DNA of 64,000 nt from Bacteroidales bacterium (GTDB lineage: Bacteria > Bacteroidota > Bacteroidia > Bacteroidales > Tenuifilaceae). This document shows positions 2,841-63,848 of this stretch, piece after piece. Made by a program: the position numbers and the translations under genes. The stretch spans positions 71 through 64,070 of the forward strand of contig RPRQ01000022.1 in assembly GCA_003818205.1 (NCBI GenBank), in the 5' to 3' direction. Each line of letters begins with the position of its first letter. The first letter of the stretch is position 1. The notes under the pieces were generated by a model, which was not told the DNA's origin, searched no databases, and saw only the letters and a list, made by a program, of their open reading frames with translations.

Positions 2841-2899
2841 ACCACGGAGACACGGACCTGCCTACCGCCTGCCGGTAGGCAGGTCTGTGTCTCCGTGTG
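2841..2899. repeat. cacggagacac hairpin with a nested CCTGCC palindrome in its apex
   Basis: The arms are accacggagacacgga and tctgtgtctccgtgtg. They flank cctgcctaccgcctgccggtaggcagg. Confidence 0.75.
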
Positions 2900-3491: not shown

Positions 3492-3844
3492 ACCCTCTTC
3501 GTTAAATGAAGATTATTAGCCTATTAAACAAGAATCAAAGGGTTCTACGGCGGTTTAGACTGCCGTTGAACTTTTAAAGAGGTTGCACTTGTAGCTTGTA
3601 TGCAATAGGTAAGTAGTGTTAATAGGAAAACTCCAAATTACAAAAATCAAATTACAAATAAAACCCAAATGATAAATTTTCAAACCTCAAAACGATTTGA
3701 TTATTTGGTACTTAAATAATTGGGATTTGATTTTTTTGAGTTTTACCTGCCTACCCTGCCTTCCGGCAGGCAGGCGACAGGTAGGTTATTTGAAATTTCA
3801 GGTTTATTGTGTTTTCTTAGTACCACTAAGTAATAGCATAAAAT

Positions 3845-4130
3845 ATCATTATTAACCGAGAAAAAAATCTAAAATCAATAGGTCGCAGCGATGCTGCTTC
3901 TAGTTGAAATGTAATCGCCTATTCTACAAATAGTTCGCAGCGATGCTGCTTTTCTATAGTCGCATAGCGACGACCTATTTGTAGTAATTAGAGAAAAATC
4001 AAATTCAAGCCCCATTAGGCCTGCCGCCTGCCTGCCGGTAGGCAGGGTAGGCAGGGGTGACCTATACATAGAATGTAGTAATATCAAGTATTTCATGAAT
4101 TGTATAGTATTTTAGTCGGTCAGTAGTGAT
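3845..4130. mobile_element. MITE-like repeat, copy B (complete, about 286 bp) with nested GC-rich palindrome at 4017-4056
   Basis: The termini are atcattattaaccgag (left) and the reverse complement of tagtcggtcagtagtgat (right), giving about 13/16 inverted identity. Inside are three gcagcgatgctgc/gtcgcatagcgac stem-loop units. AAAAT is present on both flanks. Confidence 0.65.
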
Positions 4131-8393: not shown

Positions 8394-8597
8394 ACAAGGT
8401 TCTGTTTTAAAATGTTGTGGGAAATAAAAGAAATAACGCCACGAAGACTCAAAGGCGCAAAAAAATAGACTTGTCTGAACCTCGTGTCTTTGTGACTTTG
8501 CTCCTTCGCTGAAGCTTCGGCGTAAGCGTTGTGGCAAAACTTTATTCTACAATTTGCTAAAACACAATCTTAAACAATAACATTTAAATAAGCAATT

Positions 8598-9692
8598 ATG
8601 AAAAAAATTCTTTTCGTATCCGGTTTACTACTATTAATCGGAGCATGTCAATCGCAATCATACAAATTTGCGGTATTGTGCGATACCAGAAGCGATGCGG
8701 ATAAAAATGGGATTACCGGAGTAAATGTATCTGCCGTTAAAGGGGTATGTAGCCATCTAAAGAATTCGGGGGCTGAGTTTGTTTTAGCCCCGGGCGATTT
8801 TATTTGTGGTAATGTAACCTGGTATAATTCAACAAAAACACCTCCCGACAATCAGACCCAGTATCAGGCATTTTTAACCGCTTGTCGATCGGTAGGCGTT
8901 GGTTTGCCTAGTGATAATGACAAAATTGCGCTCTATGCCGTACGAGGCAACCATGAATGTTACCAGCAGATTCTGCCTAAAAAAACCATTGAGGAAGCCT
9001 GGTTAAAGAGTATTGGTTACTCACTACCCAAGAATGGCCCTGATAAAGAGATAGGTTTCACCTATAGCTTTGTTTACAAGGGCTCATTGTTTATTGGTTT
9101 GGATCAATATATACATGCAAATGCAGCCCAAAAAGATAGCATAACCATTGATCAGAAGTGGTTAGATAAGGAGTTACTCAAATACCCCGACTCCAAACAT
9201 GTATTCGCTTTTGGACATACCCCTGCTTTTGCTGCTCAACATCAGGATTGTTTGGGACAAGACTCAATCGCCAGAAATAAATTTTTACAATCGATAAACA
9301 GTCGTTCAGGTGTTTATTTCTGTGGGCACGATCATTTCTATGCACGAGCCGATGTTCCGGTTTACAAACCGAATGGTGGAATCGAAAACTATATGCAGCA
9401 GGTAATCACCCCGAGTGGTGCTCCTTTCCTTGGAGGATTCAGCCCTAAGTGGAATGGTGAGTACAAGAATCAAAGTGTAAAAACAGAATCATACATCGAC
9501 AATGCCGTGGGATATCAGCTGGTAACTGTTGATGGGAATAAGGTCACCGTTGAGTTTATTGCCACTAATGATGCATGTACATTTACTATCGATTCTACCG
9601 GAGCGTATTCCTATACCTATAATGATAACTGGCAAAAATGGAATTTTGTAACAATGTCAAAGTTTTCATATGAATTACCGATAGGAAAGTAA
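8598..9692 (+). CDS. Secreted metallophosphoesterase lipoprotein (calcineurin-like)
   Basis: The lipobox reads LLLIGAC. The motifs GDFICGN, VRGNHE, GHTPAF and GHDHFY are present. Confidence 0.75.
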   Translation: MKKILFVSGLLLLIGACQSQSYKFAVLCDTRSDADKNGITGVNVSAVKGVCSHLKNSGAEFVLAPGDFICGNVTWYNSTKTPPDNQTQYQAFLTACRSVGVGLPSDNDKIALYAVRGNHECYQQILPKKTIEEAWLKSIGYSLPKNGPDKEIGFTYSFVYKGSLFIGLDQYIHANAAQKDSITIDQKWLDKELLKYPDSKHVFAFGHTPAFAAQHQDCLGQDSIARNKFLQSINSRSGVYFCGHDHFYARADVPVYKPNGGIENYMQQVITPSGAPFLGGFSPKWNGEYKNQSVKTESYIDNAVGYQLVTVDGNKVTVEFIATNDACTFTIDSTGAYSYTYNDNWQKWNFVTMSKFSYELPIGK

Positions 9693-11922: not shown

Positions 11923-12125
11923 GAAACGCTTGCAGTATTTACACTTATACAAATGCGTAGTAATTTGTTGTAAAAGCTAGCTTAACGATAAAAACACAGT
12001 TGCATTGAGATTATAAGCAAGTAAAAACCATTGAGCTCGACGGCGACTTGTCCGACTACTATCGGATAACGCCGTCGTTCTATTAATACAGGCATGGAGT
12101 AGTGAGATAGTTGACAGTAGTTAGG

Positions 12126-12217
12126 AGTCAGAAGACGGGAGTCGGGAGTCGGAAGTCAGGTGTCAGAAGTCGGAAGTCAGAAGTCAGGAGTCGGAAGTCA
12201 GGAGTCAGAAGTCAGAA
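12126..12217. repeat. Heptanucleotide microsatellite GTCRGRA, about 12 units
   Basis: It reads agtcagaa..gtcggaagtcaggtgtcagaagtcggaagtcagaagtcaggagtcggaagtcaggagtcagaagtcagaa. A short reverse-complement copy lies at about 22518-22545. Confidence 0.85.
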
Positions 12218-12228
12218 CCCAACTCCGG

Positions 12229-12346
12229 ATGCTGAGCCTGTCGAAGCATCACCTCTCTGCATGCTAAGACTTTCGAAGCATAATCTCCCCGTATGCTAAG
12301 CCTTTCGAAGCATAATCTTTCTGTATGCTGAGCCTGCCGAAGTATC
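12229..12346. repeat. 32-nt tandem repeat x3.7; each unit is a small hairpin (atgct..agcat)
   Basis: Units start at 12229, 12261, 12293 and 12325, an exact 32-nt period. The unit is atgctaagcctttcgaagcataatct plus about 6 variable nt. Confidence 0.85.
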
Positions 12347-12660: not shown

Positions 12661-14130
12661 ATGTCAAAATTCAAACTTCTTTTCACTGAGTATTTTGATA
12701 TTGAGGAATCAATATTAACAAATTATGGTGCTCTTAACATTTGTTTAAGTTCGGACATTCCCCTGTTTATAGACCCATTTTTATTGTTTGCTTCTGAAAA
12801 AACGGAATACAAAAAACTACATAAACACGTTGTAGACCACTTACTTTTTCTAAAAAAATATGCAACAGAAAATGAATTTAAAGATATTGACCTTAGACTC
12901 TTTAGGTTTCCTGAGATAAAACAAAATTGGTTAGGTTTAGCTCAATATGGAAATGGAGGAAAAGGTTTAGGACCTAGATTTGCAAAAAATGCAATAAAGG
13001 CATTTAATGGTTTTTATAAATCCTTTGGTGAAGAAAAGATTACAGATGAAACGCATATAGAAAAACTAACACTTTTAAATTCAGGAGTTGGAAAGGATTT
13101 CATTAGTGATTTTTCTACTAATTTAATCTACGAGTACCTTTTGGAGTATACTGAGAAATTCGCTATTACTAATCTGAAAGAAAGCCAAGTAACAGAGTTC
13201 TCAATTAGATGTAAATTCAATAAAGAAACCAAAACATGGCAACCTAGGACTTTCAAACTCCCATATTTTTTTAGAGAAAAGGGAGGTGATTTTATTCTGC
13301 TTACTCCGCTTGATATTTTAACTATTGATGAAGCTATTATTAATAGCTCTGATTTCTATAATAATTTTAATAATGTAACGCGTTCAATAGGAAATGATTC
13401 TTTAAGAACAGCAATCAATGATTATTTTAGGTCGCATCTGCCAAGAAAACCAAAGAAAAAAGATAGATTTAAAGCTTTCGTTCAGACTGTTGAGCAATAT
13501 CCCGATTTAGTTGACCTATATATTAGAATCAAAGAAGACAGTAAAAAAGTAGCTGGAGCTATTGCATTTTCTAAAATTGAAGAGATTAGAGAGCATTTAA
13601 TTGATGCATTAACTCCGTTGTGTAATTTATTAAATGAAAATAGTGAGTTTTATACAGTAAAACCAAATAGTTATGACGAAGCTCTAAAAAGAGCTAATTA
13701 CCTGAAAGATGTTATTGAGAACAATGATGGATATAGGATTTTCTATGATGGCTCAAGACCAATTGCAAAAGAAGATACAATTCAGAGAATTTTTAGGTTA
13801 ACATGGTATGCTTCACCATACGATGTGAATTCAGAAGTAAATAATGGTAGAGGTCCTGCAGATTATAAGGTATCTTTTGGTAGTGGAGACTCTACAATTG
13901 TTGAATTTAAACTAGCAAAATCATCGTCTCTTCAAACAAACCTAGAAAATCAAACTAACATTTATAAAGCTGCTTCAAAATCCTCAAGTGATATTTCGGT
14001 AGTTTTATGCTATACTTCAGCAGATATCCGAAAAGTAAATCGGATATTAAAATTAATTGGAAAAGAAGGACATGAGAATATTATTATAATAGATGCAACA
14101 CCTAAGATTTCTGCATCTAAAGTGAAATAA
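12661..14130 (+). CDS. Hypothetical 489-aa protein with a C-terminal PD-(D/E)xK-like nuclease motif
   Basis: GRGPADYKVSFGSGDSTIVEFKLAKSS gives D401 ... E415-x-K417 (nt 13861-13911). The gene is very AT-rich compared with its neighbours. The N-terminal ~390 aa are unrecognised. Confidence 0.45.
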   Translation: MSKFKLLFTEYFDIEESILTNYGALNICLSSDIPLFIDPFLLFASEKTEYKKLHKHVVDHLLFLKKYATENEFKDIDLRLFRFPEIKQNWLGLAQYGNGGKGLGPRFAKNAIKAFNGFYKSFGEEKITDETHIEKLTLLNSGVGKDFISDFSTNLIYEYLLEYTEKFAITNLKESQVTEFSIRCKFNKETKTWQPRTFKLPYFFREKGGDFILLTPLDILTIDEAIINSSDFYNNFNNVTRSIGNDSLRTAINDYFRSHLPRKPKKKDRFKAFVQTVEQYPDLVDLYIRIKEDSKKVAGAIAFSKIEEIREHLIDALTPLCNLLNENSEFYTVKPNSYDEALKRANYLKDVIENNDGYRIFYDGSRPIAKEDTIQRIFRLTWYASPYDVNSEVNNGRGPADYKVSFGSGDSTIVEFKLAKSSSLQTNLENQTNIYKAASKSSSDISVVLCYTSADIRKVNRILKLIGKEGHENIIIIDATPKISASKVK

Positions 14131-14178
14131 AAACCACTGCTGGCGCGGACATGTTGTCCGCGCCAGCAGTGGTTTTTT
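14131..14178 (+). terminator. Rho-independent terminator (perfect 21-bp stem plus T-run)
   Basis: aaaccactgctggcgcggaca tgt tgtccgcgccagcagtggttt tttt begins immediately after the stop codon at 14128-14130. Confidence 0.85.
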
Positions 14179-16480: not shown

Positions 16481-16632
16481 AACACCGCTCGCGCGGACTA
16501 CTTGTCCTGCAAGGCGGGATGCTATCAGTGCGCCATTATGAATGTATTTATAGAAATGTCACGGACTGTAAGTCCGCGCCAGCAGGCCAATATTTCAGCC
16601 CTACAGGCTTATTTTAGTTCATAAATAACAGA

Positions 16633-18687: not shown

Positions 18688-19040
18688 GATTTTAATTTTT
18701 TTTTATTGTTGAAATCAGGGTATAGGAATATAATATATCCTTTACCAAGCCTCAAAATATATTAATATATTGAAATGAAAATAACTCCGACAAGATAATG
18801 TCAGAGTATATTAAAGGGATAACCAAAGGCAGAATACCAAAGGTTATTTACTTCACCAAATCCTTCTTAGAATTAAACATCCAATGTTTTTAGATTGAGC
18901 AAAGGTAAAGATTTTTTTATTATGTTGATTATTTACTAAATTTTGTTCACTTTTTAAGCTGTGGTAGTAAGCAATTAAAACAAATTATTAGTTGACAGTT
19001 AACACCTGCCAGACCGGTAGGCAGGGTTAATGGTTCACGG

Positions 19041-20090: not shown

Positions 20091-20362
20091 ACAAATTTTT
20101 GCAAGTACTAGCGTGGCGAAAAGTGTAAAATAAACAAAAAGACTTTAGTTTAAATTGGCGTTTAAATCTTATTGTTTTCTTAGTGTTCCCGCCTGCCAAA
20201 GTAAAAGACTTTTTACGGCGGGCAGGTTAGTGCCTTAGTGGCTAAAGAAAGATTTGCCACTAAGGCGCAAAGTCACAAAGCATCGCTAAAACAAGTTGTA
20301 ACGCTAAACTACACCAACAAAAATACTAAGCTATTTGGGGCTAATATAAAGGAGGATACTTT

Positions 20363-22780: not shown

Positions 22781-23329
22781 ATGAGAACAAACAAATCATC
22801 ATTCAAAACCATAGTTTATACAGCCTTATGCCTTACATTAATTGTTAATGATGTAAAAGCACAAGAGATGCATAAAATGGATGTCAACAAGGCCGTTTGT
22901 GTGCTTTATCCGACTCAGGGTAACAACGTTTCAGGAACAATAACATTCGAAACCACTGGAATAGGCGTAAGGGTTGTTGCAAATATCCATGGATTGACTC
23001 AAGGTAAGCATGGTTTTCATATACACGAGTGTGGCGATTGCTCAGCCGCTGATGGTAGTTCGGCTGGAGGTCATTTCAACCCAATGGGGAAAAGTCATGG
23101 AAGCCCAATGGAAATGATGCGGCATACGGGTGACATGGGGAATATTGAAGCTGATGCTAACGGAGATGCACATTTAGATTATACTGATAATATGATTTCT
23201 TTATCTGGAGAGTATTCTATAATAGGTCGTTCTATGATTATTCATAAAGCGGAGGATGACCTCAAAACACAACCCACTGGCAATGCAGGCGCGCGCATTG
23301 CTTGTGGTGTTATAGGTGTTGTCGAATAA
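22781..23329 (+). CDS. sodC: Periplasmic Cu/Zn superoxide dismutase
   Basis: A signal peptide is present, along with GKHGFHIHECGDC, GGHFNP, GDMGN and GNAGARIACGVIG. Confidence 0.9.
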   Translation: MRTNKSSFKTIVYTALCLTLIVNDVKAQEMHKMDVNKAVCVLYPTQGNNVSGTITFETTGIGVRVVANIHGLTQGKHGFHIHECGDCSAADGSSAGGHFNPMGKSHGSPMEMMRHTGDMGNIEADANGDAHLDYTDNMISLSGEYSIIGRSMIIHKAEDDLKTQPTGNAGARIACGVIGVVE

Positions 23330-23603
23330 TCCTCATTTCAACGTAATCTTGTGCGAAGGCAAAGGAGTGCTGGCAGACTATAGCGTAACTAAGGGATGGT
23401 TTACTAACACATCCAATACATTAAAGCCAAGTATTATGTTTTGACCTATGAATCAACTTTAATGGCTGTGTTTTTTATCGTATTGACATAAAAAAATGAT
23501 GAAAAACGGAAATTGTAATATCTGGAAATTCCCATGATTCAGCAACTAAAATTTATTTAACGACGGATATAAATACCACAAATTCAAAAATTTAGCAAAT
23601 AAG

Positions 23604-23650
23604 AGGCTGTCTCTAAAGTCGAACAAGACTGGAATAGACAGCCTTTTTTA
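23604..23650 (+). terminator. Hairpin plus T-run, about 275 nt downstream of sodC
   Basis: aggctgtct..(inner agtc/gact)..agacagcct is followed by tttttt. Confidence 0.55.
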
Positions 23651-24471
23651 AGTTTGAGTAAAACTACCACCGGCTGAGCCAGTGGTTTTAATATCAGAGC
23701 CCCCTAAAGAGGGGAAATCAATTATTCTCATCATAACGTTCTTCATCTTCTTGACATTTTACATACCGCCTAAAACTCGCATTGGGAATACACATGCTAG
23801 CGTTTAATTCCTTAAACGACATTGATATATAATTATTGCTTATCATAAGGGCTAGGTTTTGAGCAAGCGGGTGGGAACGGCATCCGATGCCCGAAGGGCG
23901 AACTCAGCGAAGCTAAAACGGTGAACCAGAGCATGCCCTGATCGTAGGCAGGAAGCGAGAGGCAGCATTGCTTCGATTTGAACTTTTTTTGTTTCAAGAC
24001 AAAAAAAGGAAGGGGGCAGGGTCAAAGTCCCATTGGATTTTAGTCGGACAATAATGATTTTAAATAATCAATAACTCAAAAAAATGAAGTATATTTCAAC
24101 AAACAAAAAAGGAAACTATTCAGCAGTAGTCGAATTGAACAAAAACCACTGAAACACAGCCCGTCCCGATGTATCGGGAGTGGCAATTATAAAAAACGAC
24201 TGAGTATCATACGAAATATATAAAAATACGAACCTGCCCGCCGAGCTTAGGCAGGCGTGTCTCTGCGATGAGTAGTTACAAAATATAAACCGAAATCATT
24301 AATAATTGTTATGGCTATTGCAGCATCACCTCATAAAACAAGCCGAATTAAAGAAAGGTTTATAGAATGCTAAATGTAAACATCCAAATGAACAATTCAT
24401 CGTGGTTTCTTTTGGCATTATTATTCCAACGGGAAATACTTCATATATTTATCTACAGATATTAATTGTCT

Positions 24472-35022: not shown

Positions 35023-35068
35023 CTCTAATTATGGTGCAGGTTTATTACTTATTACAATTTTAATTACA

Positions 35069-35172
35069 ATGGAAGGATGGAAAAATGGAATATTGCCTGC
35101 CGGTAGGCAGGGCAGACAGGGAAGAGAAAAGTTAGTATTAACTCCATCATTCCATTATTCCAACATTCCAAA
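35069..35172. repeat. GGAAT/GGAAG-word hairpin element with a nested CCTGCC palindrome in the loop (leuA-leuC spacer)
   Basis: The left arm is atggaaggatggaaaaatggaatattg. The nested insert is cctgccggtaggcagggcag. The right arm is tccatcattccattattccaacattccaaat. Confidence 0.75.
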
Positions 35173-35207
35173 TCTGTAAAACATTCGTTTTTTATAACTG
35201 TTTTTTC

Positions 35208-36587: not shown

Positions 36588-36605
36588 ATTTGGGATAGTT
36601 ATTTA

Positions 36606-36681
36606 ATGGAAGAATGGAGTATTGGAGTTTTCGAAATTAAATGGTAGTACAACCCATCATTCCATCGTTCCAATATTCCAA
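36606..36681. repeat. GGAAT-word hairpin element (leuC-leuD spacer)
   Basis: The arms are atggaagaatggagtattgga and catcattccatcgttccaatattccaac. Confidence 0.75.
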
Positions 36682-36708
36682 CAAAAACTATAATAAATTT
36701 ATAAAACT

Positions 36709-37305: not shown

Positions 37306-37307
37306 TG

Positions 37308-37375
37308 AAAGAATGGAATGATGGAAGATAATTGTTAGAACAAACCATATTTCCAACATTCCAATATTCCATCTC
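37308..37375. repeat. GGAAT-word hairpin element (leuD-leuB spacer)
   Basis: The arms are aaagaatggaatgatggaag and atatttccaacattccaatattccatctc. Confidence 0.75.
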
Positions 37376-37431
37376 ATTAAGTGTAAAAAAAAATAATTAT
37401 AAACCGAATTCATACTAACAAGTTAGTAATC

Positions 37432-61760: not shown

Positions 61761-62019
61761 GATATTACAGATCATTATTAACCGAGAAAAAATCTAATTT
61801 TAAAAGGTCGCAGCAATGCTACTTCTAGCTAAAATATAATCGTCTATTCTACAAATAGTTCGCAGCAATGCTGCTTTTTAAAGTCGCATAGCGATGACCT
61901 ATTTGTTGTAATTTTCATTAAAACGAAATCCAAGCCCCATTGGGGGCGACCTATACATTGTATGTAGTAATATCAAGTATTTCATGAATTTATAATATTT
62001 TAGTCGGTTAGTAGTGATT
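61761..62019. mobile_element. MITE-like repeat, copy C (complete, about 259 bp, no nested palindrome)
   Basis: The termini are atcattattaaccgag and the reverse complement of tagtcggttagtagtgat. It is collinear with copy B except for the missing cctgcc..ggcagg block. Confidence 0.65.
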
Positions 62020-63681: not shown

Positions 63682-63754
63682 TGATCCAGCTGGGATTCGA
63701 ACCCAGGACCCCATCCTTAAAAGGGATGTGCTCTACCAACTGAGCTACTGAATC
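63682..63754 (-). tRNA. tRNA-Lys (anticodon UUU)
   Basis: The reverse complement reads GATTCAGTAGCTCAGTTGGTAGAGCACATCCCTTTTAAGGATGGGGTCCTGGGTTCGAATCCCAGCTGGATCA. It has a 7-bp acceptor stem, anticodon stem CATCC/GGATG, loop CTTTTAA and T-loop TTCGAAT. Confidence 0.9.
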
Positions 63755-63775: not shown

Positions 63776-63848
63776 TGATCCAGCTGGGATTCGAACCCAG
63801 GACCCCATCCTTAAAAGGGATGTGCTCTACCAACTGAGCTACTGAATC
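63776..63848 (-). tRNA. tRNA-Lys (anticodon UUU), second tandem copy
   Basis: Its sequence is identical to 63682-63754 as far as I can read. Confidence 0.9.

Follow-up and report, generated by a model that had tools for sequence, protein, structure and literature searches.

The stretch of DNA analyzed in this study (the window) comprises 64,000 nt from a Bacteroidales bacterium of the Tenuifilaceae (GenBank assembly GCA_003818205.1, contig RPRQ01000022.1, positions 71 to 64,070 of the forward strand). A GC-rich palindrome with CCTGCC and GGCAGG halves recurs in it. The pattern CCTGCC-N(0-30)-GGCAGG gave 16 overlapping matches at 8 loci, whereas 0.05 were expected from dinucleotide-preserving shuffles. 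The word GCCTGCC occurred 17 times vs. 3.4 expected from shuffles. All 8 loci were intergenic, and the GC content of the window was 31–44%. Chance and low complexity were ruled out as the source of the palindromes by the shuffles and by the conservation of bases that had not been queried. A first-pass annotation of the same DNA had listed eight places, and all of them were recovered in the spacers. Its view that they form one family applied to six clear members; the palindromes at 20192–20226 and 24233–24255 were loose or degenerate.

The palindromes differed in length and in surroundings. A 27-nt member at 2857–2883 (CCTGCCTACCG-CCTGCC-GGTAGGCAGG) formed the tip of a CACGGAGACAC hairpin. The arms of this host hairpin (2843–2897; CACGGAGACACGGA and TCTGTGTCTCCGTG) and the palindrome together gave one uninterrupted 25-bp stem of −32 kcal/mol (z −12). 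A 21-nt member (CCTGCCAGACCGGTAGGCAGG) lay between divergent genes at 19005–19025, with an outer 5-bp GTTAA(C) stem. The 16-nt member at 35096–35111 (CCTGCCGGTAGGCAGG), which is the 20-bp unit described below minus one CCTG/TGCC word, was found in the leuA-leuC spacer, within the loop of its GGAAT-word hairpin (35069–35172), and was followed by the related words GCAGACAGGG. A 40-nt degenerate nested copy of opposite orientation (CCTGCCTACC CTGCCTTCCGGCAGGCAGG CGACAGGTAGG) stood at 3746–3785, where it occupied the 3' foot of a hairpin of AT-rich words. Two further members were contained in a mosaic repeat resembling a miniature inverted-repeat transposable element (MITE), three copies of which lie on the plus strand. 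Copy A (1–203), cut by the window start, held a triple-nested palindrome at 77–132 (CCTGCCG + CCTGCCTGCCG + CCTGCCTGCCGGCAGGCAGG + GTAGGCAGG + GTAGGCAGG, with CCTG missing from the outermost left half). Copy B (3846–4129) held a double-nested one at 4020–4055 (CCTGCCG + CCTGCCTGCCGGTAGGCAGG + GTAGGCAGG). Copy C (61772–62019) was empty.

Of the two possible degenerate members, that at 20192–20226 had CCTGCC and GGCAGG halves with a 23-nt AT-rich hairpin between them. That at 24233–24255 (CCTGCC-CGCCGAGCT-TAGGCAGG) had an 11-nt non-palindromic centre, and its fold was no better than that of shuffles (z −0.8). Rfam 15 at gathering score detected only two tRNAs in the window and no RNA family at the palindromes. 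The window organism is a Bacteroidota lineage whose source is a freshwater sediment metagenome. The population comparison covered the contigs of the one public run that holds the region. Among the sediment metagenome contigs matching the 3746 locus, one had a palindrome 20 nt shorter and other contigs had none; because the flanks are repetitive, these versions may be paralogous rather than allelic.

The 20-bp unit and its distribution

The repeat unit was exactly 20 bp, CCTGCCTGCC-GG(T/C)AGGCAGG, and longer copies were nests of it. It is a near-perfect palindrome, (CCTG)2CC-GG(Y)AGG-CAGG. Its distribution was investigated by scanning genomes, one per species, for a 17-mer common to three window copies; the counts per phylum are not quantitative. 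The 17-mer matched at least 116 loci, the GC content of which ranged from 26% to 68%. Among the matches listed were Bacteroidota, Ignavibacteria, many Patescibacteria, Omnitrophota, Chloroflexota, Planctomycetota, Desulfobacterota, Nitrospirota, Stahlbacteria, and WOR-3, as well as cultured isolates, namely Olivibacter oleidegradans CCM 7765 and Flavobacteriaceae. The three unqueried 5' bases were CCT in 94–96% of the matches listed. Outside the 20-mer CCTGCCTGCCGGTAGGCAGG, information in these matches was close to zero except for a purine at −1 (G 66%, A 25%) and G/T at +1. An 8-mer enrichment analysis of the flanks gave no common motif, only AT-rich spacer words.

The secondary copies at the same loci kept the stem CCTGCCT/AGGCAGG, and their centre varied but was mostly self-complementary (GCCGGC, GTCGAC, and ACCGGT). 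In phage and provirus contigs, the perfect palindrome CCTGCCTGCCGGCAGGCAGG was present at 43 sites, the G·T form CCTGCCTGCCGGTAGGCAGG at 14, and the A-T form CCTGCCTACCGGTAGGCAGG at 1. Since the perfect form is the commonest in phage contigs, (CCTG)2CC·GG(CAGG)2 was taken as the master sequence. The form common in the window organism would then be a one-transition derivative of it. The window organism itself had 27 copies in about 240 kb, or about 1 per 9 kb, and the unit was absent from 59 kb of its three closest relatives.

Contigs other than the window are designated here by L numbers. In viral contigs of 54–67% GC (L170, L172, L178, L188, and L193), the perfect 20-mer lay within tandem arrays of 7–8-nt words (GGTGAGA, CACAGAGA, TCTCGTC, and TTGCGGA). 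The kinds of words around these high-GC phage copies were the same as those flanking copies in the low-GC window organism. Short-read contigs stopped at or in the palindrome: L002 starts at window position 35096, and position 1 of L075 is inside a copy. Because the unit is a systematic assembly breakpoint, copy counts from fragmented metagenome-assembled genomes (MAGs) are underestimates. A larger transposon with CCTGCC-type ends was also sought as separated half-sites around longer DNA, and this candidate was rejected, as only degenerate copies were obtained.

Self-nesting, empty sites, and direction of change

The 40-nt form consisted of one unit inserted in another between G11 and G12. Only this one of the 21 possible self-insertion products was found, with 5 occurrences in all the DNA examined: two Bacteroidales MAGs (L008 and L024) and three different contexts in the window organism. 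The nest accounts for the sub-repeats of MITE copies A and B, 11 nt on the left and 9 nt on the right, whose lengths do not fit the register of simple 4-nt slippage. The block of copy B was equal to the nest minus one CCTG, and that of copy A to a triple nest minus the same CCTG. Self-nesting points to insertion as the direction of change. Through slippage, words of 4, 9, or 11 nt are then gained or lost in the nested 40- and 60-nt forms.

At the filled site of MITE copies A and B, the block takes the place of the tip of a small hairpin, GCCCC-ATTR-GGGGC. This hairpin is intact in copy C (GCCCC-ATTG-GGGGC, 61934–61947), so that the contrast of filled and uninterrupted copies drawn in the first-pass annotation is real. 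That annotation had also named a deletion in copy C as the better explanation if all other MITE copies carried the block. When metagenomes were scanned for the central part of the MITE (CAAGCCCCATT...GACCTATACAT), 24 stretches from two assemblies of the window organism were obtained. After removal of duplicates, about half of the copies were empty (ATTAGGGGCGACC, i.e., ATT-AGGGGC-GACC), and emptiness is therefore not peculiar to copy C; on this check the annotation is favored. The simplest filled copies were ATTAGG + the exact 20-mer CCTGCCTGCCGGTAGGCAGG + GGCGACC; others had inserts of 29, 30, 36, 40, 49, and 56 nt. On a neighbor-joining tree of the MITE arms, filled copies were scattered among empty ones, which means that the block was inserted more than once at one spot or was precisely lost more than once. 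Taken alone, the MITE data give no direction, because slippage that pairs the flanking AGG with the terminal cAGG could remove the block and leave what looks like an empty site.

The MITE-like repeat is itself a mosaic of 13–14-nt palindromes (GCAGC-ATC-GCTGC, GTCGC-ATA-GCGAC, and GCCCC-ATTA-GGGGC) in the window copies and in L119–L142. It resembles a mosaic of the bacterial interspersed mosaic element type more than a MITE bounded by terminal inverted repeats. In the sediment metagenome run, its arms had a word depth of about 1000–2000×, compared with about 10× for single-copy DNA.

Orthologous spacers were compared at the leu operon, as the first-pass annotation had proposed for its spacers in general. 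Three relatives with the leu gene order were recovered, with LeuC 90, 83, and 80% identical. The closest one (90%) had a homologous GGAAT hairpin in its leuA-leuC spacer, without the 34-nt GC block at the apex, a difference that points to insertion; the spacers of the other two were 8 and 5 nt. The genome of the window organism contains a paralogue of the GGAAT-plus-palindrome composite with the same block (L119, 2267). The difference exceeds the palindrome alone, and given this paralogue, the change at leuA-leuC may also have been a replacement by such a composite. All three spacers of leuA-leuC-leuD-leuB in the window contain 100–180-nt hairpins of GGAAT/ATTCC words (35023–35207, 36588–36708, and 37306–37431). 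In relatives with the same gene order (L206, L207, and L209), the spacers were 5–31 nt, or such hairpins stood in different spacers, which argues that the GGAAT-word hairpins are lineage-specific insertions at operon junctions.

Copies were also found within tRNA genes. In a viral contig (L194, 2239–2330), a tRNA-Met called by ARAGORN had the unit exactly in its variable region. The Rfam tRNA model aligned to this gene from end to end with 50.2 bits and treated the block as an insertion. A second contig (L171, about 8560–8660) had the same tRNA with part of the T-arm deleted, and a partial tRNA (L201, 495–560) had the unit at the 3' end of its D-loop. The copy in the tRNA-Met variable region points to insertion.

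The first-pass annotation had argued that the palindrome is, or was, mobile. The sharp 20-bp limits, the filled sites equal to empty site plus unit, the interspersion on the MITE tree, the fixed nest point, the block-less leuA-leuC hairpin of a relative, and the tRNA-Met copy all bear this out. The results suggested that the palindromes are probably copies of a very small non-coding mobile element, the 20-bp unit of which is copied into transiently single-stranded loops. Its behavior is like that of a mobile DNA element, one that would rank among the smallest known.

Sites of insertion, proposed mover, and rival explanations

Four palindromes had been described as lying exactly in the centre of another repeat. 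This holds for the tip of the 2843–2897 stem and for MITE copies A and B. In the leuA-leuC spacer, by contrast, the palindrome forms a side hairpin in the loop closed by the GGAAT-word arms; it abuts the 5' arm and is thus off the exact centre. Besides the MITE, the apex or loop contexts in the window organism were those at 2857 and 19005 and a ACTCCGCC...GGCGGAGT hairpin in L129 and L139. GGAAT-word elements surrounded the copies at 35096, in L119, and in L131, and the same association was seen in the Bacteroidales MAG L024. Copies in L135, L128, L133, and L140 lay between direct, not inverted, CACGGAGACAC-type words. The remaining contexts were plain AT-rich spacer. About half of the independent contexts in the window organism were apexes or loops. 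For 118 copies from other genomes, flank complementarity exceeded the 95th control percentile in 18% vs. 5–7% (Mann–Whitney p 9e-5). The claimed preference for hairpin apexes and loops is thus upheld in part, by about half of the contexts here and a roughly threefold enrichment elsewhere; the copies in tandem arrays and plain spacers, and the structure test reported below, do not add to it. Survivorship bias could also give the loop pattern, because loops tolerate the addition of a hairpin.

In outer stems of at least 8 bp, oriented by the G·T type, the unit was nearer the 3' arm in all 8 cases (p 0.008). With stems of at least 7 bp, the ratio was 10 to 2, and controls were balanced. The self-insertion point and the D-loop case fit this 3'-side rule; the GGAAT composites do not. 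Elsewhere, 92 of the 118 copies lay outside crude open reading frames (ORFs). Copies were counted in tandem (52), divergent (14), and convergent (11) spacers. Orientation is only weakly defined, because the unit is almost symmetric.

Target duplication of more than 1–2 nt was not found at MITE or nest sites. A one-nucleotide homology was present at the left junction, with G in 68% of cases vs. about 23% in controls. Matching words of at least 7 nt on both sides were found for 5 of 179 copies, and for 16 (about 9%) with up to one mismatch, vs. 0.56 expected. Such words do not amount to a target duplication, because any point inside a tandem word array gives them.

The target of the unit would be transiently single-stranded DNA, namely hairpin loops and slipped tandem repeats. 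A structure-recognizing enzyme acting in trans would move the unit in the form of a single-strand hairpin. The best available candidate for this mover is a Y1 HUH transposase of the IS200/RAYT kind (RAYT, REP-associated tyrosine transposase; REP, repetitive extragenic palindrome), an assignment that is tentative and that we would sooner doubt than adopt. Toward it point the lack of target duplication, the arms of GYAG/CTRC words, the reported insertion of REPs inside other palindromes (PMC3733652), and the position of a Y1 gene beside a copy at 2 of the 116 loci listed. These genes, in two Chitinophagaceae MAGs, code for a PF01797 protein and lie up to 150 nt from the copy (L075, 95–604; L017, 3716–4175). 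The adjacency exceeds random placement, although these regions are rich in other repeats. The proteins of this family (153–170 aa) scored 67 bits with the NCBIfam IS200/IS605 model and 25 bits, below the cut-off, with the RAYT model; they are annotated as RayT by the Joint Genome Institute (JGI). All-against-all clustering of 1,607 ORFs from the 116 loci listed gave housekeeping families only, in addition to this Y1 pair.

Several results weigh against the mobile element or against its proposed target and mover. Precise loss by AGG/cAGG slippage could mimic the empty MITE sites. In other genomes, a test for apex position in minimum free energy (MFE) structures was not significant and too noisy, the control also being high, and most copies outside the window organism were not within a larger hairpin. 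The 3'-side polarity was noticed post hoc and in few cases. No strand bias was seen relative to genes (20 to 32 elsewhere, 15 to 10 here) or to GC skew (13 to 12). Neither in the window nor in about 300 kb of DNA from its organism was a transposase of any kind linked to the unit. A crude HUH-motif scan and tblastn gave no Y1 transposase when run on the window, on another 200 kb of contigs from the window organism, and on the surroundings of the viral copies. There was no fixed 4–5-nt target 5' of the insertion point, as −1 was only G or A and −2 to −5 were without information. In two further Chitinophagaceae species with a conserved single-copy RAYT gene (15 loci, L143–L157), no CCTGCC palindrome was found within 10 kb.

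The RAYT gene of those two species was flanked by 13-nt palindromes, GAGCC-GTA-GGCTC, which resemble the inner part of the G·T unit (CTGCC-GGTA-GGCAG). Palindromes of this type were not found in the window organism. The Chitinophagaceae Y1 (RAYT-like) gene had a fixed neighborhood of histidine-kinase genes. Upstream of it were arrays of 13-nt palindromes (GAGCC-GTA-GGCTC, GTGCC-TAC-GGCAC, and GTGGC-GTA-GCCAC), one of which lay inside the 5' end of the coding sequence.

A serious rival is enzyme-free copy-choice. A nascent end stalled at a hairpin or within tandem repeats would pair over 1–2 nt with a resident copy, copy the palindrome, be released by the snap of the hairpin, and return to its template. 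Only a seed copy from any horizontal transfer would be needed, and no transposase. Copy-choice agrees with the G homology at the left junction in the absence of target duplication, with unit limits that are the exact ends of the palindrome, and with copies in hairpin loops and tandem word arrays, both of which are slippage-prone. It would work in any phylum, and no linked gene was found. However, template switches to distant loci are rare, and the fixed self-insertion point and the 3'-side polarity look more like enzymatic site choice. Copy-choice also leaves unexplained why one sequence, and not many palindromes, spans phyla. It is considered improbable.

More improbable again is a non-mobile origin, by which the palindromes arose in place through slippage and intrastrand template switching on CCTG/CAGG words and traveled as passengers of the MITE and the GGAAT hairpins, the empty sites being deletions. 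The presence of the same 20-mer with unrelated flanks at the loci of many phyla is difficult to reconcile with this, as are the unit inside a tRNA variable loop and the G11^G12 nest, which alone was seen and recurred in unrelated contexts. Although the arms are tetranucleotide words and length variants of 4 and 9/11 nt are common, the 9- and 11-nt units do not fit the 4-nt slippage register. The GGAAT-plus-palindrome composite does recur whole (window 35096; L119, 2267), and precise AGG/cAGG deletion is mechanistically easy; yet about half of the MITE copies lack the block, and those that carry it are polyphyletic.

Abundance could also result from selection for a functional site, such as a terminator, an mRNA-stabilizing hairpin, or the binding site of a conserved dimeric protein. 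A stable GC hairpin indeed stands in AT-rich spacers and, as at leuA-leuC, in operon junctions, and palindromy extends to the very centre, with the compensating variants described above, as would suit a dimeric DNA-binding protein. However, the copies occur in spacers of all three kinds with no orientation bias and no T-run after the unit, and at their density in the window organism they are far too numerous to be operators. Copies are freely variable in length and nesting, relatives that share these operons have none, and selection does not explain one-step additions of 20 nt. The probability of this explanation is small, slightly below that of a non-mobile origin. An intrinsic terminator in particular was ruled out by the lack of T enrichment on the 3' side, by the copies in divergent spacers (14 elsewhere and 19005 here), and by the lack of orientation bias. 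Assembly or sequencing artefacts or contamination are practically negligible: although palindromes break short-read assemblies, as in L002 (ending at 35096) and L075 (starting inside a copy), the window and the JGI Ga0209287, Ga0105099, and Logan assemblies agree base for base, copies occur in isolate genomes and long-read MAGs, and the flanks differ at every copy.

The very small mobile element therefore remains the preferred explanation. It is probably without function for the cell, and every copy gives its AT-rich spacer or operon junction a stable GC hairpin. A wider possibility, which we take seriously without expecting it to hold, is that CCTGCCTGCCGG(C/T)AGGCAGG is a pan-bacterial minimal DNA parasite, a hairpin inserting on the 3' side of single-stranded loops in other hairpin repeats, in its own copies, in tRNA genes, and in slipped tandem repeats, and moved by a widely transferred structure-specific enzyme or by the replication machinery. 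If so, the occurrence of the same sequence from candidate-phyla-radiation bacteria to Planctomycetes and their phages would be explained. The practical effects of the copies are broken short-read assemblies, spurious ORFs, and strong hairpins in operons and even in tRNA genes.

Other repeats and genes were noted in the window. The stretch 23330–24465 is 1.1 kb without a long ORF, and its GC-rich, structured-looking segment at about 23860–24030 includes TAGGCAGG; Rfam at a relaxed threshold (E = 1) gave no match in the gene-free stretch 23300–24470. A 738-nt spacer contains a tandem array of about 8-nt words (GGAGTCAG/GAAGTCAG) at 12123–12215, followed at 12228–12345 by three copies of about 40 nt of GCTGAGCCTGTCGAAGCATCAC-like repeats. 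A perfect hairpin with 23-nt arms (AAAAACCACTGCTGGCGCGGACA and TGTCCGCGCCAGCAGTGGTTTTT) and the look of a bidirectional terminator lies at 14129–14177, right after an ORF ending at 14130. Its word GTCCGC(G/A)CCAGCAG also occurs in other spacers (883–960 and 16482–16590) and represents another hairpin word family. Two identical tandem tRNA genes, 21 nt apart, lie on the minus strand at 63682–63754 and 63776–63848.

Comparison with known systems

The first-pass annotation had likened the palindrome to REPs mobilized by RAYT or IS200/IS605-type transposases. Like REPs and REP doublets forming hairpins (REPINs), the unit is a short (20–40 bp) GC-rich extragenic palindrome of high copy number, without target duplication, that forms composite mosaics, and its arms are built of GYAG words. 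The unit differs from REPs in having no GTAG tag outside the foot of the hairpin; GTAG is inside the unit (positions 12–15 of the G·T variant, across the loop and 3' arm), and the commonest variant has GCAG. Unlike REPINs, copies are singletons or self-nests with no tandem 20+20 arrangement, and few pairs are 13–24 nt apart. No flanking RAYT, as in a REPtron, was found in the DNA examined from the window organism. REP families are usually lineage-specific and vertically inherited, whereas the unit is identical across many phyla and phages. Insertion of REPs inside other palindromes and the presence of some REP families in distant taxa have been reported (PMC3733652), as has a Bacteroidetes-centred RAYT subclass with atypical structures (PMC6006769). 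"REP/RAYT-like" is a fair analogy: several defining features of REP/RAYT and IS200/IS605 were not found for the unit, and the general style is shared.

IS200/IS605-derived elements, with the "peel and paste" mechanism of IS608, share the lack of target duplication and the recognition of a single-strand hairpin, which is presumed for the unit, and this transposase family is very widely distributed. However, they have two subterminal hairpins and insert 3' of a fixed 4–5-nt target, whereas the unit is a single palindrome with a purine preference at −1. A classical MITE combines terminal inverted repeats with a fixed-length target-site duplication; the whole of the unit is an inverted repeat, and it has no such duplication. 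The unit shares the choice of a palindrome loop as the target with IS1397 and ISKpn1, which insert into the loops of Escherichia coli palindromic units but are IS3-family elements of full size that carry a transposase and produce target duplications.

Small dispersed repeats of the Nostocaceae (SDR4–6) were reportedly described by Elhai et al. in Genome Research in 2008 as hairpin repeats of 21–27 nt, precisely inserted and often nested. The unit meets them in behavior: both form hairpins, insert precisely, are nested in other repeats, and have no encoded or linked protein. The sequences are probably unrelated, and the SDRs are said to be confined to one cyanobacterial family. We know of no description of fixed-position self-nesting or cross-phylum identity for SDRs. 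Mobile GC clusters of yeast mitochondria and the GC-rich PstI palindromes of Neurospora mitochondria are scattered in AT-rich spacers, nested or arrayed, and occasionally found in genes. They differ in being organellar, in the short target duplication of yeast, and in sequence, with no evidence of relatedness to the unit. The link between REPs and RAYTs took decades to find, and the mechanisms of SDRs and mitochondrial GC clusters are still open. Insertion of SDR5 into HIP1 sites is mentioned, as cited work, in a passage of PMC5861425.

A search by sequence string did not find the unit in the papers searched. To our knowledge, a base-exact 20-mer across phyla and phages, a single fixed self-nesting point, and insertion in a tRNA loop have not been described. 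No class of bacterial mobile DNA is less well understood than the very small mobile repeats. The unit offers a clean system, with a base-defined sequence, many empty and filled pairs in one genome, a fixed self-insertion point, measurable loop polarity, and cultured carriers, so that the question of what moves a 20-nt palindrome is directly testable. The behavior of the unit matches known kinds of elements, i.e., REPs, cyanobacterial small dispersed repeats, and mitochondrial GC clusters. The unit can be classified as a very small mobile palindrome that resembles REPs and SDRs and is unusual in its spread across phyla.

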